From NCBI GenBank assembly GCA_973895155.1, contig OZ316892.1:18528357-18592356 (forward strand): 64,000 nt of DNA, written 5' to 3'. Within the stretch, counting starts at the first letter, position 1; each line of letters begins with the position of its first letter. A program made the translations under genes and the position numbers. This DNA is from Marsupella aquatica. Taxonomy: Eukaryota > Plantae > Marchantiophyta. Below are positions 41,887-64,000 of the stretch, piece by piece. The notes beneath the pieces were generated by a model. The model was not told where the DNA came from, did no database searches, and was given only the letters and a program-made list of their open reading frames with translations.

Positions 41887-43456
41887 CCCCGGTGATTTTC
41901 TCTATCTCTATCCTCTACATTCAGCTTGCGGGTGGGTTTGTTATGATTTGATTGGGTGACTGATTGTTTTGGAGTTGTAGCCGTGGTCAAACGCACTTCT
42001 ATTAAAAACAAGTTCATGTAGCTCAGGTTGCTATTGTATATAAAGTGCAGCAGGATCTAGAACTGCTTGTAGTCCCAGCAAATCATACATGCTACAATCA
42101 CAGGATATGACTTCAATAAGTCTTCACAGTTTCTCATTTTTGTAGAATCTGAGATGTTGCTGGCCCAGGAGATGAGTTTCCCTTAAGAGTCAGGGACATC
42201 AGCAGTGTGGGCCATGTAATACAGTTGAGAATGATGGCAAGTATAATTTTTTAATGGGTCCAATGCCATGTTTGTGAGCTACTGAGTTGGATATAGGAGA
42301 AAATTACCAAAACATTATCGCAACTGCTTCCAGAACAATCATTCGTGGTTAGACTAAGCTCGGCTGAACACCCCTTGCTTGCATGGGACGGACACAATGC
42401 GGAATAGGCTGTCATGGAGTTGTCAAATGGATCTTCAATTTTCATGAGAAATGTCCTGGGTTTCCGTCCTATGTGTAGATTTCAGAATTAGAACGAAACT
42501 ACTATTAAGAATACTGTACTTAGCAATTCTTCTTTTCCTGTGAAGACATTGCCGCAAATGTTTCCTTGAGTTCCTGTCATACCAGTGTTTCCCATGCCAT
42601 TTTCAGCAACTACTGACGGAGTTGGCACCGTAAGTTTAAATGTATAGCTCTCATTACTTCAATCCAAAATTCTATGTAAACAGACATGAAGTAGCCTTTG
42701 TGCTTAATTGCTATGTAGCATCTGACTGCTTAAATTGCACTGCTTAAATACGTCAGACGGGGATTTTATGGATTGCGGAACCTACTGTCCAAGTATGTTG
42801 TAGTGGTCATCTTGCGCAGCTCAATGAGTCAATTTCATTTTCCCTGTGCACTTCTATTTCTCAGAGAATTCCCTTGTCATGCTCATTTCCCCCAGAGTTA
42901 GGAAACAAAGAAGAAGAGCTGACTAATTGTAATTCCAATCCATATCCTGATCGGTCAAGGATTGTGAACTACATTGGCCTTGTCATTGGCCGAGGTCACC
43001 AAATTTTGCTTGGTTTCATTCCTGTGGAGCACTGTTGTGATGGATGAATAGTTGTCGTAGCATTCTGCAAACTCTCACGGTTTGCTTATGGCCATTATTT
43101 GCAATTTGCTGCTACTAATATGTCTCCGACTGAGCAGCATACACCAGAAGTAAGCAATAGTGGAGGTTTAACTGCACATCAACACATCTAGTGAACTACC
43201 TCTCTGCTGCTCACTGGAGGGTGAGACTTCCACTATTTCTGGATATTGTAGTTTGTAAGCAAGTTGATTAAGAGTGTTTCATGCTATGTTTACATTGTGA
43301 CCCCTAGCTGGAACCAATGGAATGACACAGTGAGTGGGAACTGATAATTTAAGGTTGGTTGCTGTTGGTGAGGCAAGTACAGCTCCTGCTCACCTTGCTG
43401 ATCGAAGGTGCTTATCAGAGGACGTGAACACACAACACTCCACAAAAGCAACACTT

Positions 43457-43906
43457 ATGGTGAGGACCCGCAATGCTGAACATGTGCGGCTTGCACGCAA
43501 GGCAGAGATGTTGCGCCTTGAGTATGTCAGACTTGGGATCCTTCCAGCCCAGTCTGCATGGTACTTTGAGTACCCAATTGTTGCCAGGAATAACTACAGC
43601 CGCCCTGTACCTGCTTCTCCACCCTTCCCAACATCCTTGGTATTTTTGTCTCTCATACATGACCCGCCACAAATTAGGGCCCAAGGGTGTGTGCACAGTT
43701 GCCAGTATGACTGTCCTGCTTGTAGGGCTTCTGGCCTAGAGTTGGATGACCGTTCTCTTGGATGTCAGTTTTTTCACAGAGCACAATGTATCATCTGGAA
43801 CCACTCGCCATCCTGCAGTGTGCCTGGCGATGTCACTTGTCCTGCCCTCCCAGACCCCACCACCGGTCACTTTGGTGTCTACACATGTTTGGATCACACG
43901 CTGTAG
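43457..43906 (+). CDS. Cys/His-rich orphan protein (149 aa), transposon cargo; paralog of 61006-61455
   Basis: MVRTRNAEHVRLARKAEML...CVHSCQYDCPAC...; same length as the paralog, 13 aa differences by my count, no frameshift. Confidence 0.65.
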   Translation: MVRTRNAEHVRLARKAEMLRLEYVRLGILPAQSAWYFEYPIVARNNYSRPVPASPPFPTSLVFLSLIHDPPQIRAQGCVHSCQYDCPACRASGLELDDRSLGCQFFHRAQCIIWNHSPSCSVPGDVTCPALPDPTTGHFGVYTCLDHTL

Positions 43907-44575
43907 AAGACCACTTGTCACACCGCATGCACAGACCAGAGACCATTGACCTATAACTTAACACTTTGACTTGAACAGAGAGGATATTTACTTAAGATTT
44001 TGAATTATGAGCAATTTTGGGTCCAGGGTTTACGGTCAACAGTACATAACTTATCCTATTATGGCTGCACTAAGTACAATATCCTAATTTAAGAGGCTAG
44101 CAAGCTCACTTAAAAGTTTCCTTTCAAAGACTGGAATTAATGGGCCATGTGATAACCTGGAAAAAGTGATTTATGCCTAACTTATTTGTCTCATTCACTA
44201 TCATAGCCTATTTAGGATGTATAAATTACAACCCTGATCACACTGCTTGATACCAATCCTGTTCAAAAAATGCCTGTTTTACATGTCACGACTGTTATAT
44301 GTGATTCAAATGCATTAAATCTTGTTGCAGATCTCCTTTGGTGAATCATAGCCACAAAATTGAGGTGTAGGTGGAGCTATTGTACGAGGGGATCAGTTTT
44401 TAGTGTGGGCTCAACAAACCAAAAAGTATGTCTACTCTGCACATGTGTGTGAACATTTCATTGCAGTAGCAATTGCCACTCTAGTCTATATGCTACACTG
44501 TACTTTTTGTACACTGCACTAAATTGTATTGTCTGTGCACTCTGCTAAATTGTACTATCTGTCTCATGCGTAGGC

Positions 44576-44727
44576 ATGGCACGCCCTAAAATCCGAGCCA
44601 AGAAGCGGGGGATAGAGGTGAGCAACACAGGTGTAGTTGGGCCAGATGGTAGTAACTTCTCCGCAAGTCAGATTTTCCAGAAGGCAGCTCATTGTTGTGC
44701 CATTTGTGACGATGGTGGTGGCTTAGC
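44576..44727 (+). pseudogene. Truncated EDM2-like PHD ORF interrupted by an insertion
   Basis: MARPKIRAKKRG...HCCAICDDGGGL matches the 60235 ORF, then switches abruptly to a CTCGGGGG terminus at 44728. Confidence 0.85.
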
Positions 44728-45259
44728 CTCGGGGGTCTCACTCCGCGAAAATCTCATATCACGTGCGACGAAGTATAGGGTCCGTTAATTGGGTTTCTCG
44801 GAAGACTTAAGAAGATTTGTGTAAGAACAATAGGGCCAACTTTATATGTTGGACAACTTGTAAGAATAATAGGGATATTAATATTTTTGACTTTGTAGAT
44901 GGAAGGCATACAAAGAAGTTAGGGGGTCTTTGTGTCGGACTATGTAAAGTACACGTGTCACTATGTCATTGGTACACATGGCACACATAACATTCCCAAT
45001 ATATTTTCCTAATTTTTCTAATATGTTAACATGGCAAGAATTTGAGAATGATCTGGTTTTATGGGGACTCACGTTTAGGGTTTGACCGGGATTAAGTTTG
45101 AATTTTTCTATTTAATGTGTCTCGTTTACCTCAATTGGCCCTTGTCAGTCTCCTCCCGTGTCGTTTCCCTCCACTATCCCTTTGGCCCCACCCGCTCTTT
45201 GCCTCAACAGAGTCTCTTTTGTTTGTACCTTGCAGCAAATGGTCTAAACGGGGTCTAAA

Positions 45260-46100
45260 CCAGTTGTGCTCCTGCTTGGAGTGAAGGTCGGATCGAGCGA
45301 GAGTGTGCTCTTGACTGCACTTGGAGTGAAGGTCGGATCGAGTGAGAGTGTGCTCTCGACTACACTGTTGCTGGAGTGAAGGATCGACTCCTGTTGTGCT
45401 CTCGACTGCACTGCTGCTGCTGCTGGAGTGAAGGATCGAGCTGCGTTGCTGCTGCGGCTGGAGTGAAGGATCGAGCTGCGGCTGGAGTGAAGGATTGAGC
45501 TGCGTTGCTGCTGCGGCTGGAGTGAAGGATCGAGCTGCGTTGCTGCTGCGGCTGGAGTGAAGGATCAAGCAAGATTTCTCGGAGAAGGATCGAGCTGCGT
45601 TGCTGCTGCGGCTGGAGTGAAAGATCAAGCAAGAGTTCTCGGCGAAGGATCGAGCGAAGGAGTGAAGGGGAGAGCGAGAGTGAAGGGGAGAGCGAGAGTT
45701 CTTGGCGAAGGATCGAGTGAAGCGCTGCTACTTGGAGTGAAGGGGAGAGCGAGAGTGTTGCGCTCTCGGCTGTGCTGCTGCCGTTGCAGCTTGAAGTGAA
45801 GGATCGACCAAGAGTTCCTGGCTGCGCTGCTGTTTAGAGTGAAGGGGAGAGCGAGACATCTCAGCTGCGCTGCTGCTTAGAGTGAAGGGGAGAGCGAGAC
45901 TTCTCAGTTGCGTGCGCTGATTAGAGTGAAGGGGAGAGCGAGACTTCTCAGTTGCGTGTGCTGATTAGAGTGAAGGGGAGAGCGAGACTTTGCAGCTGCG
46001 CTGCTGCTTGAAGTGAACCCGGGAGTGAAGGGGAGAGCGAGACTTTGCAGCTGCGCTGCTGCTTGAAGTGAACCCGGGAGTGAAGGATCGAGCAAGAGTG
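45260..46100. repeat. Complex minisatellite (35-bp and 40-60-bp units)
   Basis: Many copies of gctgcgttgctgctgcggctggagtgaaggatcga and gagtgaaggggagagcgaga. Confidence 0.9.
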
Positions 46101-46354
46101 TTGTGCTCCGGGAGGTGGGTGTCGAGAGTGTTGCTGCTAGCTTGCTGAAACGGGAGGTGGCTACTACAGGGAGTGTTGCAATATCTCAAACCGGAGTGCC
46201 AGGATTGGAGCTGCATTGCTGCGTTGCTCAATCGGGAGGTAGGCGCTGCCTACTTTGACGATCGTACTTGCTTGCTTGCTACTATTTGACGCCCAAATCT
46301 ATCACGCATGGCACACCTAGAGTCGATCTGGTAGCGGTCATAGACGAGAAGCAC

Positions 46355-46470
46355 CTGATCTGCCCGTTTAGCTTTTCAGCTATAAAATTCCTGTTCTGAG
46401 CTCCGTGAATGGCGATAAGCTCTTTGAGTATTTTGTCCTCCAGAGCTCGCCATGCCCTCGCAGATAAGGT
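46355..46470 (-). pseudogene. Captured fragment of an R2R3-MYB first repeat (subgroup-21-like)
   Basis: SARAWRALEDKILKELIAIHGAQNRNFIAEKLNG vs canonical ARGHWRPAEDEKLKELVALYGPQNWNLIAEKLEGRSG; small indels; ends at ag|gtgc donor at the usual GRSG intron position. Confidence 0.7.
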
Positions 46471-47308
46471 TTGGAGCCACTGCTGAGATCCAGCTCCAAC
46501 TTCCCAGCCGAATACTAGCTCAGTATTGTCGTCATTTGTCTCGACGTTGTCCATACTCATCTCTCCTTCTGTGTCCGCATCGACGACTTGACGCACATGT
46601 TTTTTGGATGCATCGTTAGAGTAACCGCGAGTACAGGTCTCCAATGATTGCACTTGCCATGATTGACCACCTTACATGATCTCCATCCGTGGGCTGGACC
46701 CCAGGAAAAAAATCTTGTAACTTGACTTCTGTCGTCCCCCACACACCCGCACAAATCTGGTTCTCTATTACATGCCTTGGTGTCCCGTTGGCTGGTTCCT
46801 GCAATTTTCTTTAAGTCATCTAGAAGAGAAGACTTCTTTAAGTGTTTACTCAGCCAGGGGGGACCACAGCCTCCAGCCATACTGGGTGGCGGGCCTGGTC
46901 AAGACGTGGATGACGCTCGTGCTTGATTTTAAATTCTCTTTTGTTTCTCAAGCTTCTGGGCAAGGGCATTACCATTCTGGATTCTGAACTTGATCCTATT
47001 CAGGTTAGCTATTCAGGTCTGTTGAGCGATTGGGTTATTATTTTATTGCTGTAGTAACATGCATGGCCAATTGGTTGTCTTCATGTAATGGGAAGTTTTT
47101 GAAACTTAGAAATTGAATGGTGGTTTCAATTTTGTTCACAGGTTGCAAAAGGAATTGTAGAGGTTGTCATCAGCGCTTGCAGCAGTGAGCACCAACACTT
47201 GCGGTGAAGCAGTTTGCTAGAACACATAGTGTACCTAGTGAATTGTAAGTTGCCTGTCATTGCACGTCTAATCGTCTGGCCATTCACCGAGTATAAAAAA
47301 ATAGTGCC

Positions 47309-47707
47309 ATGGCTATATTGGGCATTACATTAGAAGCGAATTATGAGAAGCTCCTTCTGCAGCATCCAGATGAATGCTGTTGGTGTGAACCTTGTGTCAA
47401 GTGCAGGGTTGGTGATGGGAATTTTGAATGGTTCCATTGCTTCTGCTTGAAAATGCGTGGAAGGCTTGTTACTAGGACATACATGGGAAAGCATGGCAAA
47501 GTTGTCACACGTCGTTGGAAGTGCTCTTGTATAAGGCCAACCATTTGGCCTCAAAATGAGTGTCTTTTACGCAAGATTGTCATCCCGGACACGCTTGACA
47601 TTGTAGTCCCTGATAGTATTCCACATTCAACTGAGCTTGATATTGTAGCCCCAGATAGTATTCCAGATCAAGCTAAGGTTACAACCCATGGATGCTTGAC
47701 ATTGTAG
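47309..47707 (+). CDS. Cys-rich orphan ORF (132 aa) upstream of the PHD ORF
   Basis: CCWCEPCVKC...HCFC...CSC; C-terminal LDIVxPDSIP repeats. Confidence 0.4.
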   Translation: MAILGITLEANYEKLLLQHPDECCWCEPCVKCRVGDGNFEWFHCFCLKMRGRLVTRTYMGKHGKVVTRRWKCSCIRPTIWPQNECLLRKIVIPDTLDIVVPDSIPHSTELDIVAPDSIPDQAKVTTHGCLTL

Positions 47708-48023
47708 TCCCTGATAGTACATGGATGCGTTGTTCATATATGACTAGGCCTTTGTTTGCAAGGCTGCAATTGTACCATCCATGATATATGAGAATATTTT
47801 TCATTCCCATTATGTGGCAAAGTTTTGCAAGCTGGCATTGTATTTATGTATGTCTTGGTTGGTGGGTGTTCAGGTTGCACTGTGTAGTTGACTTCATCTG
47901 GGAGGGAGGTTTGCAGATCATTGGAGCAGGTGCTATGATTAACCTTATCTTTGTCTATGGATTGCTCACTATCATCATGTCCCCCTCATATGTGATGTGC
48001 TTTGTGATGATTGCAGTTGAACC

Positions 48024-48698
48024 ATGCCGACAAGGACTTCAAACATAAAGAAAGCAACACAGTCCTCTGACAGAGGAGCCTCTTTGGAAGAGGTATTGTG
48101 TATTCCGTTGTTCTCTGAGCAAGAGATTCTACAAACTAGCCCTCATGTTTGTGCAATTTGTGAGCATGGTGGGAAGTTGGTAATTTGTGATGGGCCATGT
48201 CACAGGCAATTTCATTATGTGGTTGGAGATGAAGCCCCTAATGACTCTTGCCCCTGTGTAGTCCTTCCCCTCCATCATGGAGGGAAGCCATGGTTTTGCC
48301 CAAATTGTAACCAGGACCAGGCCATGTGTTATGGGTGCCGCACTGTGGGACCGTCACCTACAATTGTGCGAAAATGCTCTGATCGTTTTTGTGTACGATT
48401 TTATTGCTTTGGGTGTTTGGTAGCTGATGCAAAGTCCTGCCCACTGCATACATGTGTGACATGTTATCAGAGTCTTGAGGGTCAGATGGTCAAGAACATG
48501 GTACAATGTCTACGATGTCCAAATGCCTGGCATACAGATTGTCTCCAGATGATCAAAAGCAAAGGGTTCGCTCATGATAGGGACATCTGGGACCATGAAG
48601 CACATGGACAACAGCGACAGATGTTTTATTGCCCCCGTCATCCTATTGATCCACACCTCAAGACTCCAATCAGGGACCACATTTCATGGCTCCAGTGA
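48024..48698 (+). CDS. Stand-alone EDM2-like composite PHD-finger protein (224 aa)
   Basis: CAICEHGGKLVICDGPCHRQFH...WFCPNC...CYGC...CPLHTCVTC...CLRCPNAWHTDCL...FYCPRHPIDPHLKTPIRDHI; intact, intronless, acceptor ttgcag just upstream of the ATG. Confidence 0.85.
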   Translation: MPTRTSNIKKATQSSDRGASLEEVLCIPLFSEQEILQTSPHVCAICEHGGKLVICDGPCHRQFHYVVGDEAPNDSCPCVVLPLHHGGKPWFCPNCNQDQAMCYGCRTVGPSPTIVRKCSDRFCVRFYCFGCLVADAKSCPLHTCVTCYQSLEGQMVKNMVQCLRCPNAWHTDCLQMIKSKGFAHDRDIWDHEAHGQQRQMFYCPRHPIDPHLKTPIRDHISWLQ

Positions 48699-49204
48699 TC
48701 TGAATAATGAACAAACCTATTACTTAGGTTTCAACGTCTTAGTGGGGTATGAGCAAGGCACATACTTAAGGTGCATCATGGGTGGTAGTACCCAATTTTA
48801 TTAGTGTTGACATTTTGTCATAATTAAGGTCACTAATAGTGCTGTATTTTGATGAGCAGAAGCACTAAACTTCGGGAATTGTTAGAAAAGCAGGCGAAAA
48901 GGATATTTTGTCCAAAGATATTTTATCCAACTTTAGCGGTATATCATGATTTTCACTGAATACATTTGCATGTATGATGGATTGCATTATAAAGTGTTTT
49001 GGCCTATTAGCACTTCTATTGTTAAATGTATGCTGACATTATGTACATTACATGAGAATGTGTATGTTGTCATTGCATCTCTTGAAGATCCTAATGTGTT
49101 TCCCTTGTGTGTATTTCAAATGTATTTGTGCAGGTCTCCACCTCTTACACATTGTGGACTAATTTTGTTGGTGATGCTGAGCAACTAGCTAGTGTGGCTG
49201 GTTT

Positions 49205-49560
49205 CACTAGAAGAATCCGAGGTGAACTGAGACCGCAATATATGACTCATTTTGGCTCATGTGACTTCATTGTGACTCAACGTGACTTGACCCACGCTGT
49301 GACCCTTGGAGTTGCAAAAGTTGAGACCAAAAAATGGAAGTCACTATTGATACTGGGCTTTGCAACTTGCTTGATACCCATTTGTGACTGATCTGTGACT
49401 TTATTGTGGAGTCTAGCCTTGTTTCGACGTGACTGCAATATGACTTCAGCGAGTCACATCGTAAATCACATACATGACTTACCCGCATTCAACAACGACT
49501 AGCGTGTGACTATTTAGTGTCACAGGAGAGACCAATGGAGACCCTGGCCCGCGTCACACA
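49205..49560. repeat. CACTA terminal inverted repeat and subterminal repeat region
   Basis: ttt|CACTAGAAGAATCC followed by more than ten tgtgac/gtcac motifs in both orientations. Confidence 0.8.
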
Positions 49561-50059
49561 ACAGAACCATTTGGGACTCTATATACTCATGTTTATAACT
49601 AATAAGGATCACATGCAAGTTATAACCATGACTAATGAACACAGAGGGACAGTTCATAAGAAGAGAGAGCACTCGACATTACAATACATAGAAACCTGAT
49701 GTTCTAACTTTAGAAATATAACACATTGAATACAAGAAATGAACATAGCATGAATGACATCCACATGAAACAAAGCATCATATAAGCAGATCCTACATAA
49801 AACATTCATAAGAATTAAACACAATCACAATCTTGCTAAAAAATGAAGATCATTTGAATTCCAATGGAATAGTTTACAATGTGATCAATGTAATTTAGAC
49901 AAAACAGGAACTCATAATTGATGACTGTAGGATGAGATAACTGAAAGCACATGCATGATACTATGAATCTCCAAGAGGACATGATTCTTGTACTGTTTCT
50001 TGACATCTAAAATCTACATAACATGACTCACACTACAAACAAATAATGGCATGACATTG

Positions 50060-53000
50060 TTATGGATCCTCTATGAACTTGCTTGGCCATAATACCAAAG
50101 AACCTGCAGCATCTCCAAGTGTCTTTTGAGGAGGATCATCATTTGTGTTTGGAATGGGAAGGACAGCTTTAGGTTTCACTAGTAATGTGACTAACACTAC
50201 TGAATAACCTGGGGGAATCCTCTTGCCATGGAACGTTGTGGAACCAACCTGCACTCTGGCAAATCCTACTCGTGTTCCACTCTCATCAACAGCTAACAAG
50301 CCACTTTGTCCCTCAGCATTAGGTGCTTTCCCCACTTCCACCTTAGATCTTTCTGCCAGCACTGTTCTTGGAGGTTTGTATGAAACCTTTGACGTGGCTC
50401 TGCTCCCACCAGCAGACTTGCTTCGTGTGCGCATGCTTCCTCTCTTCACAGTAGTGAAGCTAGGCTCAGTAGGTTCCTCTGTTAGGACTGTCACAGTAGC
50501 AGGTTCATCACCTGGGAGTGTCATACCAACTAACTCTTTGGTTGGATTTATCTCAACAAGAGGCACACCTGTCATTGAGAATGATACATTCTGCAAATCA
50601 TTTATCTCTGCAATGGAGTCAAGATCTACATAGCATGAATCTGGCTCAATGGTATCATTGTCATGCTTGCTGATATCCTCATTTGCCCCAACATTGATAT
50701 CATCCACTCCCTTGCCAATGTCATCCTCATCCAAACATGGTTGACTGCCCTCTGTCAAACAAGTTGCTTGTACAGACTGCAACTTTGTTGCCTCTAAATT
50801 ACAGCGAGTATTTGCCAGGTTCTCATACTTCTTCTCTGTAGCACCTGTCTTATTCTCTATGGACACAACAACCACAATATATGTTACTGAAAATAACACA
50901 TTCAACAAACAATGTCAATTCAAACTATACATTTAATAATCATATCCCACACAGTTGTAAAGGCCTTACCTTCAAGCCTACATGTCGTTGGCATGCCAGA
51001 AGAGTGCATCGACTTTGCCACCTCAAGTGGTGATGGTGGAACTCCTGCAGAATTGGAATCAATTTTATCTCTCACCGACACAACAGCTTCCATTAATGTC
51101 TTGAAGTTCACATGGAACAAGTCAGTCAATGAATTCAAACGTTCATTGATCTCTGGAAGACATGTTTCGACAGCCTTCAAACGACCACTTATCTCTGTAA
51201 GTGAAGATCCACCTCCCTACATGACACAGGGGTATAGGTTCAATCACTCCATATGAAATGTTGGGCAATATATGCACAATCAATGTTATATACAGTGTAC
51301 ACCTGAAATTCAACGCAGGTCATTCAATTACCAATCAGAACTCATATAACTTACATGCTTGGAGGATTCAGATGCACCCTCTTGAGCCCGGGTGTTCACA
51401 ATTTCAGCCCTCAACTCTTCTTTTGAAGGGCTTTGCCCCAATTGGGCTTTCTGCACATGCATGGCAAACACAAGTTATCGATCAATATTCAGGGAACGTA
51501 CACTAAAAAACAAAGTTTACATGTAGGGACAGTACACTAAAAAATAGTACATAGTGTAGCATAAATTACATAGCTAGGCCATTCATTCTTACCAAACGTT
51601 TAGCTGTCGGTGCAGTGCCGGTCCTTCCTGTCAGATTAGGGTTCTGAACACTCAACCTGGCCTCGGTCATCTGTGAACTCTTCTTTTTTGAAGCATCTGT
51701 TACAAAATAAGCTACTAACCTTGCCCACACTTTATCATCACAACTGGCTGGTGGAGGCATATCTGGCTTCTCCCCACCTTCCTTCCAAGCCTTATGCATT
51801 CTCCACCTCTCTTGCTTGATAATTTTACCTGCTGTACTCTCTAGGCAACCTATGTCCACGCCATCATCACTGCCCACATAATTCCATTTGGCAGCAACAT
51901 TTTCACATACAGTCTTCCAATCTTTTGGATGCTGTTTTTTAAAATTAATAACACTCACATCTAACCAACGCAATACTTCAGCTTTCAAATCAGCATGCCA
52001 TCGGTTCTTGCGAGGACACTCAGCATCCACCCATTGTCTCTCATTCAACTTTACGTTCCCTTTCTTTGTCACCTCCCCTCGTGCACTGCTCTCGGTAGTA
52101 CTGGGCGTTGTATTGGCCACCCCTTCATTCACCCTACCTGGGGTTCTGAAGCCACCTGGGAAAATACAATGCCATTCATGCTTGAGAACTACATATAGCA
52201 GAATGGATGACGGCAACATTCAATGCTTCACTTCAAGAAAAATTCTTCAAACATACATACCTGTAGCTCTGCCTGTAGATGCCTGTGCAGGGACTGCACT
52301 CTGAAATTGTTGCGACCCTGGACCACCTGTCCAGCCTAGTACAGGGGCCGGATGATGTCACTTTCTAGGTATGTGTGTGCAAACATATGTACTGAAAACT
52401 AAGTACAAACTGTAGGAAAACAACTGAACATTCACCGACATACCTGTCCCCCTTCCGTGCTGCATCTGCATAGGGGCATTAGTGAATACTTGAGTCGATG
52501 GTTCGACTGTCCAACCTGCACACATACATTTTCTATCATTATACATGTGCAGAGTCCCCCCCACGTGAATGGACTCCACATATAATGAGTTCTTCCATTG
52601 CTGACAAGATCAGACATTACCTGCTCCTCTTCCAGCGTTTGTAGGTACTGAATTTTGATATCCCTGCCAATTACCTTCACCACCTTCCCAACCTTGTTCA
52701 TTCCACGACCCACCACCATCCTCCCAACCTGGTTCAACCCATGTCTGTCCTTGTGGACATTGGAACTGATCATTACTAGCATTTGCCCAATCAGGTTGGG
52801 CAGAATCTGCATGCAATGGCAGGTGGACAGAATTTCATGTTGTCTGAATCCAATACATCCCAAACAATGTCAAAAATTGATATGCAGTCTGAAATTCAGG
52901 AGTGCCATGCCTTCACAAAGAACTGGCATATAGATATATACTCACATCCCCACGGTTGAGGTGGACGTCCATACCCACGAGATTGTGGGTTTGGACCTGC

Positions 53001-53767
53001 TCTGCCTCTACCACGGGCATAACCTAGAGCTTGCCCCCTGCCATAGTATTGGGCACCAGCCTGGGATCTACCACTACTACCACCTCGCCAACCTTGATCA
53101 GAGGTCAGCCCCCCCTGCTGGTATGGTGCATGCACAGGCTTCGAAGGCAAAACAGAACTGGCAGGACGCTGCATCACATCACCAACTACAATGTCAGGAA
53201 CTAAGCAAGGTACATATGTGTAGTACTGAACATATGAAACCTCTAAACAAGAGTTTTTAACTCAAAACCTTGTTGGGAAAACTACTTACATGTTTCTTTT
53301 GGGGCTGCTCTGCAATGTATTCATCTTCATAACCCCCATCCTCATCCATTTCCTCTGGAAAATACTCATCATCTGCATCTTCTTGTCTAGTGTCTGCACC
53401 CACCTGTGCAGCATCAATGTCATCTCCACATTCTGCCATTGTAGGTACGACCTTCTTGCTCAACCTGTCACTCCGACGCACAGGCCCAGAGATAGTGCTG
53501 GTCACCCTTCTTGCGTACTCCTTTTGTTTCTTTGAAAATGCTGTGGCTCTGCGACATTCCAATATGAGAATACAGTCACAATTTCAGTGCCACATTGAAC
53601 TATTCATGTCACACAAACTCAGCGGAGGGGTGTAGTTGAGAATCGTTCCCTTACAATTCAGCCACATCCTTTTCCAGATCCAGTTCTGCGATTTTGGCTT
53701 TCACGTATGCTCGTTGTTCCATAGCTTTCCTTTCATACTCACACATCTCTGTGTCACTCTGTTCCAT
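50060..53767 (-). CDS. TnpA-like multi-exon protein (Ptta/En-Spm Transposase_24 and Tnp1/Transposase_23-like domains)
   Basis: ATG at 53767 after tag|g; exons 53767-53655 and 53548-53290 splice in frame; PPPASCDDKVWARLVAYF...KKSSQMTEAR...TGRTG; C-terminal FHGKRIPPGYSVVLV...LPIP...TLGDAAGSLVLWP; internal exons only partly resolved. Confidence 0.8.
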
Positions 53768-53923
53768 CCTACTGGACCACAAAAACATGTCATCTATGGT
53801 CACCCCGTATAACACAATGCAACCACAATCACCAGGCATCCATCCATACATCTGTGTTGCTTCAGAATTACTTTATTACACATCCTTCCCCTCACTAATG
53901 TCTATGCAAACAATTCACATTAC

Positions 53924-56900
53924 TCATGGCACAGGCACACTGTTGGCATCTGCATCTCTGAATTCGCCTCCTTCAGCAAATGCATCTACCCTTGTCACAG
54001 GAATGAAGTCCCCGCTATCATGAACTACAGGCACTTGGTCTGAACGCCGACGATCAAAGGCACTATGAGAGTGTAAATGAAACTCAAGGTTTGATCCTTC
54101 CATCCGGCGTTGCCTGGCCTGTTTATGACACACTACACGCCAACCTGGGGAGTCTTCCACATCCAGGAAGAAAGCTTGCTCCACCTGACTAGGAAACACA
54201 AATGGCTCAGACCATTCGGGCAATTTCCCTCTGAAATTGGCCAGCAAGAAACCGTCGTTGTCTCTCTTCATGGTAGCCCTGTTACCAAGCCAATCCTGCC
54301 GCACCCATGAACCTTTCATAAGAATCACAGGACTGGACACCGCCCCATAGTCCAGAGCCCATATGTCAACTAATTCTCCCACATATCCCATCTCCATCCA
54401 GGCCCTGTCGTGATTGTGGCTCTGTTGCTCAAATACAGTGATGAGCCCGCAGTCATTCGTCACCCTGTAGGCACTGTCACCATCCTTCACTCGGAAGTGA
54501 TTCCCATATGCTCTCATCCGTTTGTAAGTCTTCACTTTCAGGCTAGGGGCATTAGACAGTAGGTAAACATCTGCATCCATGTCTGGGTGGGTCTCGTGAT
54601 GCTCTCTAATTGCCACTCTGATCCACTCCATGAAACCTGGAAAAGTTGTTCCTGCAGTGGGATGGGCCGCCTTCAATGACTCATACTCCCTGAACGAACA
54701 ACCACACAGCATTAGCTTGGGTAAACATGAACAGGCTGAAGGAGAAAACCACACGAACACAACATTTAAGCTCATGAACTGGATTATAGCACATGTATGC
54801 ACTCACTGTATCCAGGGTTCCATCACCACAGTGTTGTGCAATACAAAGTCATGTGCCAAGTCTCTCATAGATATGGTCAGGTTCTTTGTGGTTGCAGCCC
54901 CTTCCAGTACTTCACCTACCACCCCTTCCTCCTCATCAGAATTCCACACCCTGGTCTTCACATGCTCATATTGTGCTATGTATTCGGTCAGAAATCCCAG
55001 AGTCTCATCCTTGATGTAACCTTTAGCCATGCTTGCTTCAGGTTTGTAATATGTTCTCACGTGACCTTTGAGTAGCTTCATGTACCGTTCCAAAGGGTAC
55101 AACCAACGAGCACTCACAGGCCCAAATTGGTGTAGCTCTTCCACAACATGGACAAGTAGGTGGGTCATGACATCAAAAAATGCGGGAGGAAAATAAATCT
55201 CCAGGTCACACAGCACCTGAGCGACATCTTCTGTCAGTTGTGGGAAGTGTGTTTCATCCCAAACCTTCACACAAATACGACGAAACACATCACTGAGTCG
55301 CATGATCACAGTACGAACAGGCTTCTGCAACAGGCCCCTCAGGCATAAAGGCAACACCTGTTGCATCAACATATGGTAGTCATGGCTTTTCATACTACCA
55401 AGCTTTCTAGTCATGATATGCTTCTTGAAAGCACTGCCATAGTTTGAAGGAACCTTCAAAGAACTCAACCTCTGCACAAATAGTTCCCACTCTGTGTCTG
55501 TCAGAACATAGGGCGCTTGGTACTTCAAGAGCACATCAGCTCTGTGGGCATGTGGCCTCAACCAAAGATGGGGTTTCATTCCCCTCTGTTCAAGATCCAA
55601 TCTCACTGAACCAGTGTCTTTCTCTCCACACAAGAATCTGAGTAGACTCTCACAAATATTCTTTTCAATGTGCATAACATCAATGTTATGTTTGCTTGGC
55701 TCAAACTCCTGCATCGTTGCAATGCAAAAGCGTCAGGAAATGCCTCAAGTTTAGTCTCTCTCTTCGAAATGAATGCACATGCTCTGAACCAAAACATGTA
55801 TCCCAATTAGCATCAACTCCAAGAGGCTTACCCTCCAGTACTTGAGCTCCAAGTCCAATATGCTCAGTCTTTTTACACCATATCGCTTTATTGGATCACT
55901 CACTCCATCTTCCCTGCCCCCTCGTTTGATATAGTCATCCCTCAGTGCTCCCCACTGCCTGATCTCCTCTTTGGTCACTCGTGCCGGGGGTCCACGTTGC
56001 TCAATCTCATTGCCAAAGTGTGCAATCAGTGCCTGTCTTTCTCTGTAAGGGTGATCTGTCTTCAGAAAACGACGATGGCCCATGTATATCACTTTCTGCA
56101 GGGCTCTGGAGTACTCACTGGTGACATTGCGCCCACAGATAGTACAAGCACAATATCCTTTTGTTGTTTGGCCTGATATCATCCCATGGGCTGGGTAGTC
56201 AGCTATAGTCAGAATGACAATGGCTCTAAGGATGAATGGGTTTAACCTCCCAAGCCTCTGTAGGACATCATATGTGAGAACTCCTTCCTCCCAAAGCTTT
56301 CTCAATTCCTCCACTAGGGGAGCCAGAAACACATCTATGTTGGCAGATACAGCACTGTCTGGCCCTGGTATCAGTAGGACCATCAGAACAAAAAATCGCT
56401 TTGTAGTCATCCAAGGAGGAAGGTTATAATTCAAAATAGTTACAGGCCAGCATGAAAATTTGTTGTTCTTGTCTCCAAATGGGTTTACCCCATCCAATGA
56501 CAGCCCAAGTCTGACATTCCTCGGCTCAGCAGCAAATTCGGGATACATCTCATCTATGAGTTTCCATTGCCTTGAATCTGCAGCATGTCGTTGTAGCCCA
56601 TCATCACTTTTCTTGTCAGTTGCCCAAGTCATCATCTCCGAGATGGCACGGCTTCTGAACATCCGCTGAAGTCTGGGAATGAGTGGAAAATGACGAAGTA
56701 CCTTGGCGGGAACCATAGACTTTCCTGAGTTCCGATACCTGTGCTTCCCACACTTAGGGCATGTCAACGATTCTTTATACTCCTTTCTGAAAAGAACATG
56801 CCCATCAGGACAGGCATGGATCGAATCATAGTTCAATCCAAGATTAGATATGCATCTTTTTGCCTCGTACATGTTCTTGGGCAAAATATTACCATCTGGT

Positions 56901-57655
56901 AGCACAGTTGTTCGCAAGAATGCCAACAACTCAGAAACCAAAACGTTGGGGACATTGTGGTTGCCGCAAATGTTCAGGAACATGATGACAAATCCCAGTT
57001 TAGAACATTTGCTACCGGGGTACAAAGACTTCCTGCCTTCCTGTATTTGCAGGGGAGAGCCAAACATCCCATCATGCCCAGGGGTTTCCTGCCCTATCTC
57101 AAACTCATCAAGAGGCTCTTCGACAGGGGGCACACTTGCATCTGCAGCCGTATCCTCTTCATTGTCCAGCCCATCATGAAATGCATCCAAGTCTTGGAAG
57201 ATGTCTCTCACCATCTCTTCCACATGAATTCCTTCGTCACGTGGTGCTGCCTGAGCACCATCCCGTTGGAGAGCTGACAACCCACAGAGACCAGCTACAA
57301 CATTTTCAAATGCACCAGGCAGAACCTCACTTGCCCGTCTTGCAGCATTGGCAGCATCAAATTCTAACCTCCACTCCTCGTCGGAAGAATCTTCCTCTGC
57401 AGGATCATTCCAAACTCGATGTCGTGGATCTCTTCCATGAACCGCGATATGCCGCCAAACCTCATTCAGACCCCTGGTACGGGATCCTTGGCAGATTGCA
57501 CAAGGACATCTCATCCTACTGGCTCCTGAAAGTCTGGTTCGTAACCTTTCACGCTGCCAAAGCTTATTATCATGGCGTGATATCCTTGTGGGATGATGCA
57601 AAGGCAGTGCCTGTGCCCTGGGCTGGGTCTGGGGAGGGTGGTGACCAGGGTGCAT
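53924..57655 (-). CDS. TnpD-type CACTA DDE transposase, apparently intact; exons 57655-55832, 55708-54807, 54689-53924 (~1160 aa)
   Basis: CPCAIC..HIAVHG; IHACPDG...CPKC; KVLRHFPLIPRLQRMF; RNVRLGLSLDGVNPF; TIADYPA; IDVMHIEKN; MKSHDYH; FPPAFFDVMTHLLVH...WLYPLERY; EPFVFPSQVEQAFF; GT-AG introns keep the frame. Confidence 0.93.
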
Positions 57656-58088
57656 TGTAACAGGCTGGGAGCTCTGCAGTCATGGACAGCAGTGAACAAG
57701 GATGCCTAATGGTGGTATTTGTGTTCCATATATCCCTGACTGTATCTGCCAAAAGAGTTAACATAACGTGTACTAAATTCTCACAAACCCTAAACCACCC
57801 CAAAAGAAAAAAACAGGTTCGCAAGTAGTGTACCTATTGTCAAGTGAATGACACAAAATTTCTAAATGTTGGAGGGTGTCACCACCTCCTCCGCTGTCCT
57901 CAAATGTACCGCCTCTGCATGTACGTTTACAGTGACACCCCCAGGCAGCAGGAAACAACAATCCGCCAACAGTAAAATAAGCCCAACTGCCACCAACCAT
58001 AACAAGGTACATTAGTTCAAAGATCACATTTATTTCAATGATCTGATTTATACAAAAAAACTTGTGTCCAAACTGATGCTACTACTCC

Positions 58089-58961
58089 TCACTCTGATTC
58101 AGAATCGCTAATGACCCATTCCTCACTTGTTGTCTCATAGTCCTCTCTGTAAGGATCCTGACCCTTCCGTGGCCAGGCCTCAAAAAGATCATAGTCCATT
58201 GGGTTTTGACGCTTCCCAGCTGCTACTGATTCCACAAGCCAAGCATATGAAACCACAAACACATTATGGGACATGACATAAAAGCGAATGTCTCCCTTCC
58301 CAAACTTGCGGCAGGCTTTGGGATATGACTTAGTAATGACATGAGTGGTGTCCTCTGTTATATTCTCCTCCACTGTCCCACCTAGGTCAAGCACTGTGGA
58401 CTTGTACACTTTGCACTTAACCTCTCCAATTCCCGCCTCCACAAATACCATGCTCAGCCCTTTCAGAATGGGGGTTGGTTGCTTCGTCTCCTCAGCCAAC
58501 ATACTCTTCAGCCTTGTAGAGCTCTGTCCTTTGTTGAGTACAGGTCCATATTGGAGATCAGCAAGCCGTGCCTTTGCTTCCCAGACTTCTTGTTCAGCCC
58601 AAGCTGATGCAGTAGCTTCTTCATCCTCCCACAACTCATATTGCTCAGTATCCTGTACAATCTTATGTGCTATGGAATCTGTGATCCAAGAGGCCTCAAC
58701 TACTTTTAGGCCTTGCTTAGTAATTGCAGAATTCATGTAGGACCATGACCACTTCTTTATCACTGATAGCCATGTCCCTGCAACAACATGTGTAGTCTCT
58801 GGAGTGATGTCCTGAACTACAGTGCCATGGAGCTCAGAGAATCGTTTCTGTACAGTTGGCCAATGCACTTTGGTCAACCCATGCTGGCCATGGACCAAAA
58901 TCGCTCTGACCCCTGTAAACACTGCTGGGTGGTCACACTTTCTACGTTTACCAGGCTCCAT
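58089..58961 (-). CDS. Tandem BRCT-domain protein (transposon cargo)
   Basis: Two repeats: FTGV...HGTVVQDITPETTHVV...VVEASWITDSI...EQYEL and LKGL...LGGTVEENITEDTTHVI...VVSYAWLVESVAAGKRQNPMDYDL, with BRCT GG/THV/W-x-x-x-S hallmarks. Confidence 0.85.
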   Translation of the reverse strand: MEPGKRRKCDHPAVFTGVRAILVHGQHGLTKVHWPTVQKRFSELHGTVVQDITPETTHVVAGTWLSVIKKWSWSYMNSAITKQGLKVVEASWITDSIAHKIVQDTEQYELWEDEEATASAWAEQEVWEAKARLADLQYGPVLNKGQSSTRLKSMLAEETKQPTPILKGLSMVFVEAGIGEVKCKVYKSTVLDLGGTVEENITEDTTHVITKSYPKACRKFGKGDIRFYVMSHNVFVVSYAWLVESVAAGKRQNPMDYDLFEAWPRKGQDPYREDYETTSEEWVISDSESE

Positions 58962-59554
58962 GTACACACACCCTACGTGATGACAGTGAATTTTGGAAGA
59001 ATGGGTTCACCTGACAATACAAGGACAACAAAATTCCTGCTTTTTGAGTTGATCTGGCCCACTGGTGCTCAGGTCCGATTTTGATAGGTACAAGGGATAT
59101 GTCACACAATACGTACTAGGCACCTGCACGGATGCAGGACATTGTTTGAATATATACTACAAAATCCATATCCGTGGTGAAATGAAGTGCAACCAACTTG
59201 TCATGGCACATACATATTTTGTTGTAAAGGAGGATACATTCAATGACAAACTTATAGGGCAATTTGATTAATTGCATGCCTGATAATTTATACGCTTACA
59301 ACTTAGAAGTCCTGTTTTAATTTAGCAGTGTGATGAAAGTGTTTATGAAAATGACCACTCAGCCTAAATACTTCCAAGAAGGCTTGTAAGGATAAGTTTG
59401 TATAGGCATGTACCCAGCCACTGACGCCAGAGCACAAGATAAGTGCTGCCTATATAAACTCGCCTACCCAACTCCTTTTCAAAATTGGAATCTCTGCAAT
59501 CTCAAAAAATAGTACATCCACATCAGGTGCACTGTGCATGTACAATGTTCAGCT

Positions 59555-60235
59555 TCACAGCCAAGATATGTGATCTCTCACAGGAGTGCGCGAGGTAGGA
59601 TCAATGGCATGGCGATGACAATAAAATATCCATCGATCAACACCATGTGCAGAGTGATCATAGATTTCTCTGTCACAAGCATAACCCTCTGCTTGATGAT
59701 CTTTCAGGCAATGATAGTGCCACATAGTGGGACACCTAGCACAGTGGACTATGTCAGTCCAGTAGTCATCATCATGCTCACCACATGCCTTGCACCTATG
59801 AAGTGGGCAAGCTGTGGCATGAGCAGGCAAACACTCAAAACAGAAAAATCTCACACAAAAACGGTCTGGACATTTCCTAACATTTGCTGCAGCATCAACA
59901 GAGCCCTCATAGGACCCCAACTTCCCACACTGTGCACACTTAGCCTGCTTCTCCAAACAATCAGTGCACATCCAGTCTCCCTGGTGTGTTGACGGGAGGC
60001 CCACCCCTGGACAGTTGTTTTCTGCAGCAAGGTCAGACTCCGGGTTGAGGTGGAAATGCCTCATGCAAGGGCCCTCACAAATGACCAGGCCCCCACCATC
60101 GTCACAAATGGCACAACAATGAGCTGCCTTCTGGAAAATCTGACTTGCAGAGAAGTTAGTAGCATCTGCCCCAAGTACACCTGTGTTTCTCACCTCTGTC
60201 ACACGCTTTTTGGCTTGAATTTTAGGCCGTGCCAT
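59555..60235 (-). CDS. Stand-alone EDM2-like composite PHD-finger protein (226 aa)
   Basis: CAICDDGGGLVICEGPCMRHFH...WMCTDC...CAQCGKLGS...CPLHRCKAC...CARCPTMWHYHCL...FYCHRHAIDPTSRTPVRDHI; basic N-terminus (possible NLS). Confidence 0.88.
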   Translation of the reverse strand: MARPKIQAKKRVTEVRNTGVLGADATNFSASQIFQKAAHCCAICDDGGGLVICEGPCMRHFHLNPESDLAAENNCPGVGLPSTHQGDWMCTDCLEKQAKCAQCGKLGSYEGSVDAAANVRKCPDRFCVRFFCFECLPAHATACPLHRCKACGEHDDDYWTDIVHCARCPTMWHYHCLKDHQAEGYACDREIYDHSAHGVDRWIFYCHRHAIDPTSRTPVRDHISWL

Positions 60236-60248
60236 GCCTGCGCATGAG

Positions 60249-60390
60249 ATAGACTCTACAATTTAGCAGACTGCACAGAAAGTAATATATATTTAGCATT
60301 TAAGGTACAAAGGCATTTAGATAGACTCTACAATTTAGCAGACTGCACAGAAAGTAAAATATATTTAGCATTTAAGGTACAAAGGCATTT
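60249..60390. repeat. Tandem duplication, 2 x ~71 bp
   Basis: atagactctacaatttagcagactgcacagaaagtaa...aaggtacaaaggcattt occurs twice. Confidence 0.85.
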
Positions 60391-61005
60391 GCTACTGCAA
60401 TGAATTGGAATGGCCACACAAGGATGCAGAGCACACATACTTTTGGTATGTTGAGCCCACACACAAAACTGATCCCCTAATACAATTTCTCCACCAACAC
60501 CTCAATTTTAATTGTGGCTATGATTCACCAAAGGAGATCTGCAACAACATTTCATGCATTTGAATCACATACAATAGTCGTGACATGTAAAACAGGCATT
60601 CTTCGAAGAGGATTGGTATGAAGCAGTGTCATAAGGGTTGAAATTTATACATCCTAAATAGGTTATGATAGTGGCTGAGACAAATAAGTGAGGCATAAAT
60701 CATTTTGCATATTATCACATGGCCCATTAATTCATTCAACGTTGCAATGTTCACCAGGTTAAAGCAGTCATGAAAGCAGTCTTTCAATAGAGACTTTTAT
60801 GCGAGTTTGCTAGCCTCTTAAATTAGGATATTTTGCTTAGTGCAGGCATAATAGGATATAAGTTATATACTGTTGACCCTAAACCCTGGACCCAAAATTG
60901 CTCATACATCAAAATTTTAAGTAAATATCCTCTGTGTTGAAGTCAGAGTGTTAAGCTATAGGTCAATGGTATCTGGTCTGTGCATGCGGTGTGACAAGTG
61001 GTCCT

Positions 61006-61455
61006 CTAGAGCATGTGATCCAAACATGTGTAGACACCAAAGTCACCGGTGGTGGGGTCTGGGAGGGCAGGACAAGTGACATCACCAGGCACACTGCAGG
61101 ATGGCGAGTGGTTCCAAATGATACATTGTGCTCTATGCAAAAATCGGCATCCAAGAGAACGGTCATCCAATTCTGGGCCAGAAGCCCTACAGGCAGGACA
61201 GTCATATTGGCAACTGTGTACACACCCTTGGCACCTAATTTGTGGCGGGTCATGTACAAGAGACACAAATACCAAGGATGTCGGGAAGGGTACTGAAGCA
61301 AGTAGAGGCCGGCTGTAGTTGTTCCTGGAAACAACAGGGTACTCAAAGTACCATGCAGACTGGGCTGGAAGGATCCCAAGTCTGACATACTCAAGGCGCA
61401 ACATCTCTGCCTTGCGTGCAAGTCGCACATGTTCAGCGTTGCGGGTCCTCACCAT
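61006..61455 (-). CDS. Cys/His-rich orphan protein (149 aa), transposon cargo
   Basis: CQGCVHSCQYDCPAC...C...H...C...H...C...C...CLDH; conserved paralog at 43457-43906. Confidence 0.65.
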   Translation of the reverse strand: MVRTRNAEHVRLARKAEMLRLEYVRLGILPAQSAWYFEYPVVSRNNYSRPLLASVPFPTSLVFVSLVHDPPQIRCQGCVHSCQYDCPACRASGPELDDRSLGCRFLHRAQCIIWNHSPSCSVPGDVTCPALPDPTTGDFGVYTCLDHML

Positions 61456-62450
61456 AAGTGTTGCTTTTGTTGTGATGTCCTCTGTTCACGTCCTTTGATG
61501 AGCAAGGTGAGCAGGAGGTCGACTTGCCTCGCCAACAGCAACCACCTAAACTAATCAGTTCCCACTCAACTACAGGTCATAGTATACACATAGCATGAAA
61601 CGTGCATAGTACATATTTGATTCTGAGTTTATGAGTTTCCTAAGACAAAGAGCTTGGTGATAAACCCATATTCTCGATGGACATGTATATCAATCGTATT
61701 AAAATCCTGTTTTTTCATCCAGAAAGACCGAAAGTCTCACCTTGCAGGTTGCAGCAGAGAGAAAATTCACTGGTTGTCGTGTTGTGCAAGTGAACCTCCA
61801 CTGATGCCCCCGGTGTAGCCCCTCAGATGCAGGTGACACTTACCAACTCCCAAGTTGCCTGGTCTAACAGAAAATGCTTATATCTTCAGAACTTTATAGA
61901 GCAAGTACATGATCACATACTTCTGGATCTATTCATATTTGGAACTCTTGCCAACTACAACTCCCATTATGCACAAGCTCACATCAACAGAGAAAAATAC
62001 AGAATGCATACTTACTATGGCTCTAAGCACCTTCACTACCTTGTTGAACCCAGTCCTGAAGTCTTTTCAGCGTGTTTGTTGTGCTGTCTCCTTTGGCACC
62101 CAACACCTTAGTCCTTGATGTAACAGAATGCGATTTTACAAGTTAGATGCTTTGGAACCTTCTATGGTCTTAGCTGAATTGATGTCATCGTAAGTGGTGA
62201 AAGACAAGGAAGACGAAAGCTGGTTGAAGAGCTGTGGACAACACACTAGCATGAAGTGCTTCAACCAATCCACTGCCAAACGGAACTCTTACACAGTCAC
62301 ATTCTTTCAGTAAACAGAAACTCAATCAAACTTCATAATCAAAGTACAGACTCTGAAGGACCAAAGGAGGATGTTGTGAGTTTCTCTGTTGTTTAATGTG
62401 TTACCCTTCTAGTTTCGAAGTTAGCAAATGCTGAATAATGTGTCTACCAG

Positions 62451-62790
62451 ATCTTCAAAAAGAAGCCCACCACAATTAAGAACTTTGGTATCTGGGTGAG
62501 GTATCAGAGTTGTACAGGTTATCCCAACATGTACAAGAAATATTGTGATACCACATTAAACAACCACACAGCAGATGTATGATGAGATGGCTTCTTGTCA
62601 TAGAGTTCGGTTCCCTTGCATCCAGATCATCAAGACTACGACAGTCCCTGTCTCTCTGTGCAAGCGAGAAAGTACCAAGCAGTTCCATGATTCAAAGATC
62701 AAGTTCCCCTTGACGTACCGCAAGATTCAACCTCCATCGCGAAAGCTAAAGACGACTTACAAGGCCACCAAGCCCAACACATTTGTTTGA
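62451..62790 (+). pseudogene. RPL18A: 60S ribosomal protein L18a (eL20) last-exon pseudogene fragment
   Basis: cag|[29 protein letters not shown]...(frameshift)...[22 protein letters not shown]...[18 protein letters not shown]...[15 protein letters not shown]; conserved Arg codons changed to Cys (CGT->TGT); upstream exons not found. Confidence 0.88.
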
Positions 62791-64000
62791 GTAGTGCGGG
62801 TGTAGGTTCCCAATTTTGAAACAATTTGGCTCATTTTATGTCCCGAGGGACTCCAGGAGTTTATGTATTGAGTTTCTAGGTCAAGATGCTTAATATAAGG
62901 AAATTCAATTATCACCTCGTTCCCAACTTCTATTAATTGAATATACACAAGCTGGAAGCAAGAAGACAAGCCACAATCTAGCATCTTAGCCAAACACAAT
63001 CGTCCCGACAAAGCAAAACTCAGCTGGACAGAAGTCACTCGGATCCACAAAAAATTGAAGATTCACCTCCAAGCCGGAGGCCGATCACTTCAGTACAGCA
63101 GCTTCTGGACGGAACAAACTCTGCTCAGCCCCACAAAAACACAAATGTTAAGGCTCCAAGTCAGAGCTCACAAACAGAAACTCAGATAAATAACATTCAA
63201 AATCTGTCCAGGTTTGTGCAAAGTGTACATATTCATTCTTCTGGAATGAACACGCAATGCATACATCGCCTAGACACAGTCATTATAAATCATTGGGCAA
63301 TTGGGGACCACTAAGCAGGTGTGTTCCTATTTCGAGGCTACAAGAAAGGATAGAGTGACACCAAACTGAAGAGTACACCAAAAGAAAAACAGCAAGAACC
63401 AAAGTCAATCATGTGTGGATATTTTGCACATGGGAAGTTCCCCTGAAGAAGCACCAGTTGCTAACATTGTCACCCGAACCACACCCAGTTTATTACCTCA
63501 ATGTCTTCAGCCTCAATATCCAATCCTCAGCCCCCTGGTGCTTCCGTGTTTGTTCTGAAAATTTCTGTGATGAAATAATTATTCAATACATTCAATAGCA
63601 AAGAGAACTCAATCACAAAAGAAAAATAGTTAGTGTGAATGCTAATTTCTCAACACTTAACTAAATTCAAACCACCAATTCAAGTAGTAAGTTTCAAAAA
63701 CTTGCCTTTACATGAAGAGAAACCAATTGGCCATGCATGTTACTAAAGCAATAAACAAATAATTAGGCTCAACCCCGGGCTCAACACACAGGCAAACTAC
63801 TCGAAACATGCTGCTGAGAAGTAACATTTTTTGAATGTCAGACTATGTGTAAGTGCCATGATCGTGCTCCTACGTTTCACAAGGAGGGCTGGCCCGAAAG
63901 GGAGAAGCAACAATGTGGAGTCTATACACGTAGCACAAATCCCAGTTTAGAAGGGTGGATGAAGTTCAGACAAGAGTTCAGAACTTGCCATTTGAGATTG

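Follow-up and report, generated by a model that had tools for sequence, protein, structure and literature searches.

An EDM2-type triple-PHD reading frame as a probable accessory gene of a CACTA element in the liverwort Marsupella aquatica

What is a short reading frame for an EDM2-type set of PHD fingers doing among the genes of a plant transposon? Is it a fragment of a host gene or a gene of the element in its own right, and what might its product do at chromatin? We addressed these questions in a 64,000-nucleotide stretch of the Marsupella aquatica genome (assembly GCA_973895155.1, contig OZ316892.1, positions 18,528,357–18,592,356), hereafter the window. The open reading frame in question (the PHD ORF) lies on the minus strand, with its ATG at 60,235 and its stop codon ending at 59,555, and encodes 226 amino acids without internal stops (Table 1). 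As far as the coding region is concerned, a preliminary description of the locus was thus right to call it a single intronless ORF. Three NSD-type PHD models (PF23011, PF22908 and PF23004) matched along the protein at residues 39–93, 96–140 and 148–180, in the order in which they occur in NSD1/2/3, with E-values of 4.6e-5, 3.9e-3 and 7e-5, every one of them under its curated cut-off. These were the sole Pfam matches: SET, PWWP, RFD and other EDM2 domains were not found, with RFD present in Arabidopsis EDM2 (P0162) and in the named EDM2 orthologues. Six of the first 20 residues are Lys or Arg, which agrees with the earlier statement that the protein consists of a PHD module and a basic N-terminus alone. 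No recognisable transposase-binding domain was found in the protein. Immediately upstream of the start, at 60247–60390, is a 72-bp tandem duplication that doubles an acceptor-like tract and is absent from copy B.

Table 1. Features of the window around the PHD ORF (window coordinates).
Feature	Position	Strand	Basis or remark
Stand-alone EDM2-type triple-PHD ORF (copy A, P0001)	59555–60235	-	ORF, Pfam, BLASTP, AlphaFold2, ligand alignment
Basic N-terminus, codons 2–10	60206–60232	-	H3-tail register at positions 1, 2, 4, 7, 9
PHD1 (C41–C93), EDM2-type, His-x12-Cys insert	59957–60115	-	Pfam, BLASTP, ligand alignment
PHD2 (C100–H146), Cys132 for host His316, ~19 residues shorter than EDM2	59798–59938	-	Alignment
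PHD3/variant PHD (C148–H209)	59609–59794	-	Pfam, ligand alignment
C-terminal motif, stop codon directly after	59558–59623	-	Common to streptophyte EDM2-like proteins, absent from NSD-like rows
ORF-X, 149 aa, Cys-rich C-terminal half	61006–61455	-	Selection relative to copy B; second copy at 43457–43906 (+)
Tandem-BRCT ORF, 290 aa	58089–58961	-	Pfam; two full-length stand-alone relatives
tnpD, first open frame (Transpos_assoc, Transposase_21)	55751–57679	-	Pfam
tnpD, second open frame (DUF4218)	54803–55732	-	Pfam
tnpD, third open frame (DUF4216, below cut-off)	53924–54802	-	Pfam
tnpA-like frame (Transposase_24)	51566–52219	-	E=1.5e-4, 22.3 bits, below the 28.7 cut-off
CACTA element, 3' end	49205–49524		CACTAG terminus at 49205; subterminal GTGAC-type repeats at 49259–49524
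Copy C (P0002), intact stand-alone PHD ORF	48024–48698	+	49% identical paralog, just outside the 3' end of the element
Copy B, ORF-X and PHD codons 1–49, partial copy of the 5' part of the element	43159–44722	+	Cut off by unrelated DNA

The resemblance to EDM2 proposed from the Cys/His pattern and the C-terminal motif was borne out. BLASTP aligned the PHD ORF with residues 225–432 of EDM2 (64 identities in 211 positions, 30%; E=2e-27), and none of the 24 inferred zinc-ligand positions is lost in a 36-row alignment that includes EDM2, one of them having changed from His to Cys; the division of these ligands among three fingers is read from the alignment. The alignment with EDM2 takes in the C-terminal motif, which had been given as YC-x-H-x-ID...TPVRDH; the motif is present, with two residues rather than one between its first Cys and His (YC-x-x-H). 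Unrelated PHD proteins, named beforehand as the outcome that would count against the assignment, were not the best matches, which were short EDM2-type relatives.

EDM2, ELP1 and the streptophyte EDM2-like proteins share with the PHD ORF the triple-PHD cassette, an insert of 10–12 residues between a His and a Cys of PHD1 (H-x2-C in NSD2 and AIRE) and a C-terminal TPxRDH extension, which was absent from the NSD-like rows. It is because of this insert and this extension that we class the cassette as EDM2-type rather than NSD-type. The NSD1/2/3 PHD1–3 cassette is alike in the order of its Pfam models and provided the best solved-structure matches, both by profile and by VIA-align, whereas it lacks the insert and the C-terminal motif, just as the PHD ORF lacks SET and PWWP. 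The differences from EDM2 are considerable. EDM2 has 1297 residues, with RFD, PGR, methyltransferase-like and proline-rich regions in the domain list available from PMC7529245, none of which occurs in the PHD ORF. In the 36-row alignment, host His316 is His in all 24 host rows and Cys in all nine family rows; PHD2 has lost about 19 residues in the family; and the acidic run ahead of PHD1 in EDM2 is gone, with a basic, H3-like tail in its place. The PHD ORF is, moreover, transposon-encoded and falls in a separate long-branch clade. Judged by its sequence, it is an EDM2-type cassette at the domain level and not a member of the EDM2/ELP1 protein family at the gene level.

AlphaFold2 run with a 62-row alignment gave a mean pLDDT of 87.5 and a pTM of 0.81, with a confident fold for residues 30–226; an earlier model from seven rows was too weak (pLDDT 59.6). 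Foldseek returned generic PHD/PZP matches alone for both models, with low TM-scores. A profile of the 62-row alignment, which also contains host EDM2-like rows, matched PHD1–3 of NSD2/NSD3 at an E-value of about 1e-22, and the best solved structure by VIA-align was the NSD-type 9gbf (Z 5.0, rmsd 2.6, 75 aligned residues). In the second model, residue 7 was assigned to a strand bridge, at low confidence and with no visible partner, and nothing is drawn from it here.

Is the PHD ORF then a recent fragment of a host EDM2 gene? Its closest relatives are themselves short: all five matches have 217–245 residues (37–82% identity), and in a wider search with 249 matches, all seven at E<=1e-30 were 245 residues or shorter. 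The best host-type matches were 27–35% identical. None of ten short relatives looked up had an NCBI or UniRef record, as expected of ORFs that are repeat-masked. In a 57-row tree from a quick search, the short family was monophyletic (13 of 13 rows, SH-aLRT 100) inside an unresolved set of streptophyte rows. Removal of 22 redundant, partial or long-branched rows and addition of P0094 gave a 36-row tree, in which the family was again monophyletic (9 of 9 rows, 100/99), on a long stem, and sister to the other streptophyte rows (83/85). The NSD-like rows formed a branch of their own (100/96). Grouping the family with flowering-plant EDM2 was rejected by the AU test (p=0.004); grouping it with a liverwort paralog clade was not (p=0.29), the long stem making the placement unsure, and the donor of the cassette is uncertain because of the long branches. 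The phylogeny called for in the preliminary description therefore upholds the separation from NSD and places the family outside the flowering-plant EDM2 clade. By these comparisons the PHD ORF is not a recent EDM2 fragment; the monophyletic family to which it belongs is an old one, made up of unannotated proteins. Short PHD-only EDM2-like proteins are also annotated in grasses; they sit inside the flowering-plant clade, so that stand-alone cassettes have more than one origin. Two metagenome searches were made as well. An alignment scan confirmed none of 221 pattern matches. A degenerate-motif scan gave four loci, all of which were rejected: three (L001, L002 and L004) were bacterial NADH-dehydrogenase-like operons, judging from their ORFs, and the fourth (L003) had no tblastn match to any query.

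The PHD ORF lies in a same-strand array in the order ORF-X, PHD, BRCT, tnpD, tnpA-like, head-to-tail upstream of the BRCT ORF. Its description as transposon-borne stands insofar as Transposase_21 (E=2e-70), DUF4218, DUF4216 and Transposase_24 follow downstream and a CACTAG end lies at 49205; the 5' end was not found, with no TIR partner for the 49205 end at 60000–64000 and no matching second end in the window. The tnpD frames are probably exons, since they end near GT donor-like sites. The window holds no second complete element, and among the contigs shown there was none that bridges the PHD ORF to tnpD and no external locus with both. The PHD gene is strongly indicated to belong to the CACTA element, which is bounded on its 3' side only. 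In contigs from the public runs X2 and X3, depth steps up about tenfold near 49250, which fits the terminus; depth in these data stands neither for copy number nor for support.

Two of the neighbouring genes had not been recognised in the preliminary description, which likewise lacked the two further PHD copies and the H3-like N-terminus. The BRCT ORF, for which two stand-alone relatives of full length were found (60% and 54% identity, both from Logan only), had the BRCT region of BRCA1 as its best solved match, a weak one (E about 0.007), and a canonical phosphopeptide pocket was not obvious by eye. ORF-X gave no usable Atlas match and no Pfam match under E=0.09. Comparison with its counterpart in copy B showed 18 synonymous and 15 non-synonymous differences (pN/pS 0.25, p=6e-5), indicating purifying selection; of the five remaining frames, a similar signal came only from the antisense one that has its third positions in common with ORF-X.

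A protein encoded between two such neighbours could be one exon of a longer spliced product, joined for example to ORF-X or to an upstream exon. In copies A and B a YAG directly precedes the ATG; alternative splicing occurs in CACTA genes according to PMC13547354; and several relatives carry a short in-frame extension ahead of the conserved Met. However, relatives that are just 38–45% identical begin at the same Met, with the basic motif, and likewise stop directly after DHISW, ORF-X has a stop of its own, and the in-frame stop of the PHD ORF excludes read-on into BRCT. The acceptor may also splice a non-coding leader only. A search among longer proteins found no such product, although this search was insensitive, as a later one did return long EDM2-like proteins. 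On balance, we consider the exon reading improbable.

If the PHD ORF is a separate gene, the next question is whether it is maintained. A passively captured host fragment, hitch-hiking without function as in Pack-type cargo, would fit the decaying cargo in the region: at 62400–62790 (+), on the 5' side of the element, there is a broken RPL18a-like piece, frameshifted and intronless (PF01775, E=1.3e-5 for 62560–62787), which may be a processed pseudogene or a captured fragment. Close variants of the PHD ORF also show no significant synonymous excess. Copies A and B differ with a dN of 0.074 and a dS of 0.205 over 49 codons (p=0.09), suggestive at most. Among the variants listed from the contigs (40 of 69 rows), 25 fall in the PHD ORF, eight of them synonymous and 17 not (p=0.14); none introduces a stop or hits a ligand position, and the three indels listed at a share of at least 15% all lie outside the ORF. 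Over greater depth the picture is different. Reading frames and zinc ligands are intact across a family 38–82% identical, and between copies A and C synonymous sites are saturated (pS 0.78, pN 0.33, 192 codons) with both frames open, which largely refutes the cargo reading; the remote host-type matches noted above offer no close donor either. These comparisons show constraint on the PHD ORF clearly over long divergence but do not demonstrate it between close copies. That the gene is passive cargo thus seems highly improbable.

We judge about equally improbable that the PHD ORF belongs to a domesticated host gene family that merely sits among transposons here. The annotated grass proteins and the position of copy C beyond the 3' end of the element would agree with domestication. 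Against it, copy A is part of a same-strand gene array, copy B repeats the layout of ORF-X followed by PHD, and the ORF is covered by over a thousand variant contigs in one run: the 1.2-kb PHD stretch drew 1774 contigs from run X3, 1023 of them under 99% alike. The larger interval 46300–64000 drew 6525 contigs from run X2, possibly the sample from which the window derives, and 13,561 from run X3. In run X6, from another organism, contigs covered the conserved PHD ORF motifs at 59596–59688 and 60045–60144, and near-identical contigs covered pieces of tnpA, tnpD and ORF-X; the immediate flanks of the PHD ORF had no cover in this run, to which no weight is attached. Taken together, the PHD ORF is very probably a selected accessory gene of the transposon. 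A point on the other side is that the window shows no homologue of the element's transposase beside copy C. As further observations on the copies, a Cys-rich frame of 136 codons without a Pfam match lies just upstream of copy C (47297–47707, +) and has no similarity to ORF-X, and an inverted repeat of about 100 bp (87.5%), at 47035–47136 and 63659–63762, is found upstream of both copy C and copy A and could represent either a shared 5' segment or a small repeat.

The N-terminus of the protein drew our attention next to the fingers themselves. After removal of the Met it would begin with A-R-P-K-I-Q-A-K-K, in which positions 1, 2, 4, 7 and 9 agree with the tail of histone H3. The pattern [RK]xKxx[AS][RK] occurs in 14 of 23 family N-termini where 0.5 would be expected from shuffles, a post hoc pattern counted over related rows, and in one of 147 and two of 147 control segments of host-type proteins. 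When the best 9-residue H3 match was picked in each of the 23 N-termini, Arg or Lys stood at position 2 in all 23, Lys at 4 in 20, Ala or Ser at 7 in 17 and Lys at 9 in 17; 11 of the 23 matched H3 at p<=0.05 relative to their own shuffles. M-[AST]-R-x-K was present in 11 of 23, starting at residue 1 in ten. M-A-R-x-K also opens four short grass-clade EDM2-like proteins (P0033, P0185, P0045 and P0094; 320–386 residues, two of them named from Eleusine), which sit elsewhere in the tree, ahead of their PHD cassette.

Such a tail, joined to an H3 reader, could serve as an anti-silencing decoy that soaks up the host writers, erasers and readers of H3K4 and H3K9, or blocks EDM2-like proteins, with less silencing of the element as the result. 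The recurrence of the motif in the family and in the grass proteins points in this direction, as does the use of captured chromatin proteins for anti-silencing in Mutator-like elements (PMC13547354, available text). However, the pattern was chosen after the sequences had been seen, and the rows are related. The start of a MADS box scores as well as H3 for P0001 (20 versus 20), copy C and P0005 lack the motif, and the basic starts of the BRCT ORF and ORF-X mean that a plain nuclear localisation signal explains much. By sequence, the basic N-terminus is possibly a histone mimic and possibly a plain NLS, and we treat the H3-like N-terminus as a lead, not a result. The decoy, although unlikely, is the main rival to the adaptor reading developed below.

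The original suggestion that the protein might help transposon transcripts read through heterochromatin fared less well. The PHD fingers of EDM2 bind H3K9me2, and the ASI1-AIPP1-EDM2 complex promotes distal polyadenylation, as described in the available parts of PMC7472560 and PMC7529245 (further background in those of PMC3632883 and PMC9292364); by homology to this cassette, the PHD protein could recruit or mimic the complex and let transposon transcripts pass through H3K9me2 chromatin. However, every other EDM2 domain is missing, and the family lies outside the flowering-plant EDM2 clade, is 30% identical, and shows changes in PHD2 and ahead of PHD1. We find no support for the view that the protein is just the EDM2 module with its specificity unchanged: the family is long-diverged and remodelled, so that neither H3K9me2 binding nor AIPP1/ASI1-dependent read-through can be transferred to it from EDM2. 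We regard read-through as very unlikely.

We tentatively favor, at somewhat less than an even chance, a reading in which the intact PHD protein of the CACTA element binds the free N-terminal tail of H3 and acts as an adaptor between the transposition machinery and chromatin. The PHD ORF would be expressed as a separate 226-residue nuclear protein. We presume that PHD1 reads the N-terminal end of H3, since it retains both the acid in the C-[DE]-G turn and the pocket before the Trp. In AIRE-type PHD fingers these features hold A1 and R2 of H3. In the alignment, PHD1 has no acid two residues before its first Cys, and since the acidic run before this Cys is lost, its mark specificity is probably unlike that of EDM2. 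PHD2–3 would serve as the surface to which a transposon partner binds, and the H3-like N-terminus may lie in the groove, to be displaced by a nucleosome tail; complex prediction for the cassette and residues 2–33 of the same protein gave no answer (score 0.02). The neighboring BRCT protein would link the same complex to DNA repair. Such an adaptor has parallels in the available text of two sources, one linking PHD readers to transposons with a proposed role in targeting (10.1101/2021.11.30.470311) and one in which transposons encode RAG2-like PHD proteins in a gene of their own (PMC7204232). Evidence against H3K9me2 as a default target comes from PMC13621724, where the Arabidopsis transposon families under study avoided this mark in their somatic insertions. 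A more elaborate version, which we consider rather unlikely, is an old CACTA lineage with an accessory cassette of three genes (Cys-rich ORF-X, triple PHD and BRCT), in which the PHD protein would be both a mimic of the H3 tail and an H3 reader, the mimic gating the reader or baiting the host H3K4/H3K9 machinery, and BRCT would recruit repair. If this were true, one small protein would both sense and subvert host chromatin, as a transposon-encoded histone mimic in plants.

Several known systems resemble this arrangement in part. Like the PHD ORF, the RAG2 and RAG2-like proteins of RAG-like transposons are encoded by a separate transposon gene with a PHD finger able to read the H3 tail (PMC7204232, as available), whereas they belong to another superfamily and carry a single PHD attached to a kelch domain, which cooperates with the transposase; they are not known to be related to the PHD ORF in sequence. 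Host chromatin readers of the PHD and chromo types have been captured by transposable elements, with targeting or evasion proposed (10.1101/2021.11.30.470311, available text), although in those cases they are joined to transposon domains in one gene model, whereas here the PHD cassette has its own ORF beside a BRCT ORF. VANC of VANDAL and the NDX-like domain of EN/SPM TnpA are accessory proteins derived from host chromatin regulators as well, but with other folds and donors, and the available main text of PMC13547354 mentions neither PHD nor BRCT. In Table S6 of PMC12973397, as available, all five PHD rows belong to Mutator-like elements, in a table that may predate the NSD-type PHD models, and BRCT is listed once, for an accessory protein of CACTA type (1 of 775 clusters). 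A CACTA-borne EDM2-type PHD protein was not described in the literature searched, outside of which most subscription papers fall. Capture of PHD readers by transposons is thus already known, and what we report is new in form: a stand-alone, old EDM2-type family beside a BRCT gene in a CACTA element. Beyond TnpA and TnpD, little is known of how CACTA elements choose chromatin and escape silencing, and a small relative of the EDM2 reader with a well-folded predicted structure offers a direct handle on both. A module that serves the host as a tool for intronic transposon chromatin would have long been kept by transposons themselves. Histone mimicry is known from viruses (PMC6028506 and PMC11738798, available text); were the N-terminus a working H3 mimic, it would extend to plant transposons.

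The remainder of the window contains other mobile sequences and a probable host gene. Pieces of a Tc5/CENP-B-type (pogo-like) transposase (BrkDBD, CENP-B_N and HTH_Tnp_Tc5) lie at 37368–38353 (-), and two further CACTAG-type ends face each other at 38736 and 40782, with a weak TIR match and no TSD. The unrelated DNA that cuts copy B (44723–46700) includes a GC-rich tandem array at about 45300–46100 and a weak Myb-like frame at 46282–46671 (-), and its 150-bp repeat recurs at 24861–24970 and 36312–36466. A direct duplication of about 5 kb is formed by 18945–24333 and 29319–34161, with 74–97% identity in blocks. The probable host gene, at 9414–12286 (+), has a histidine-phosphatase (His_Phos_1) exon; the observed/expected CpG ratio is 0.64 at this gene versus 0.25–0.39 in the element.
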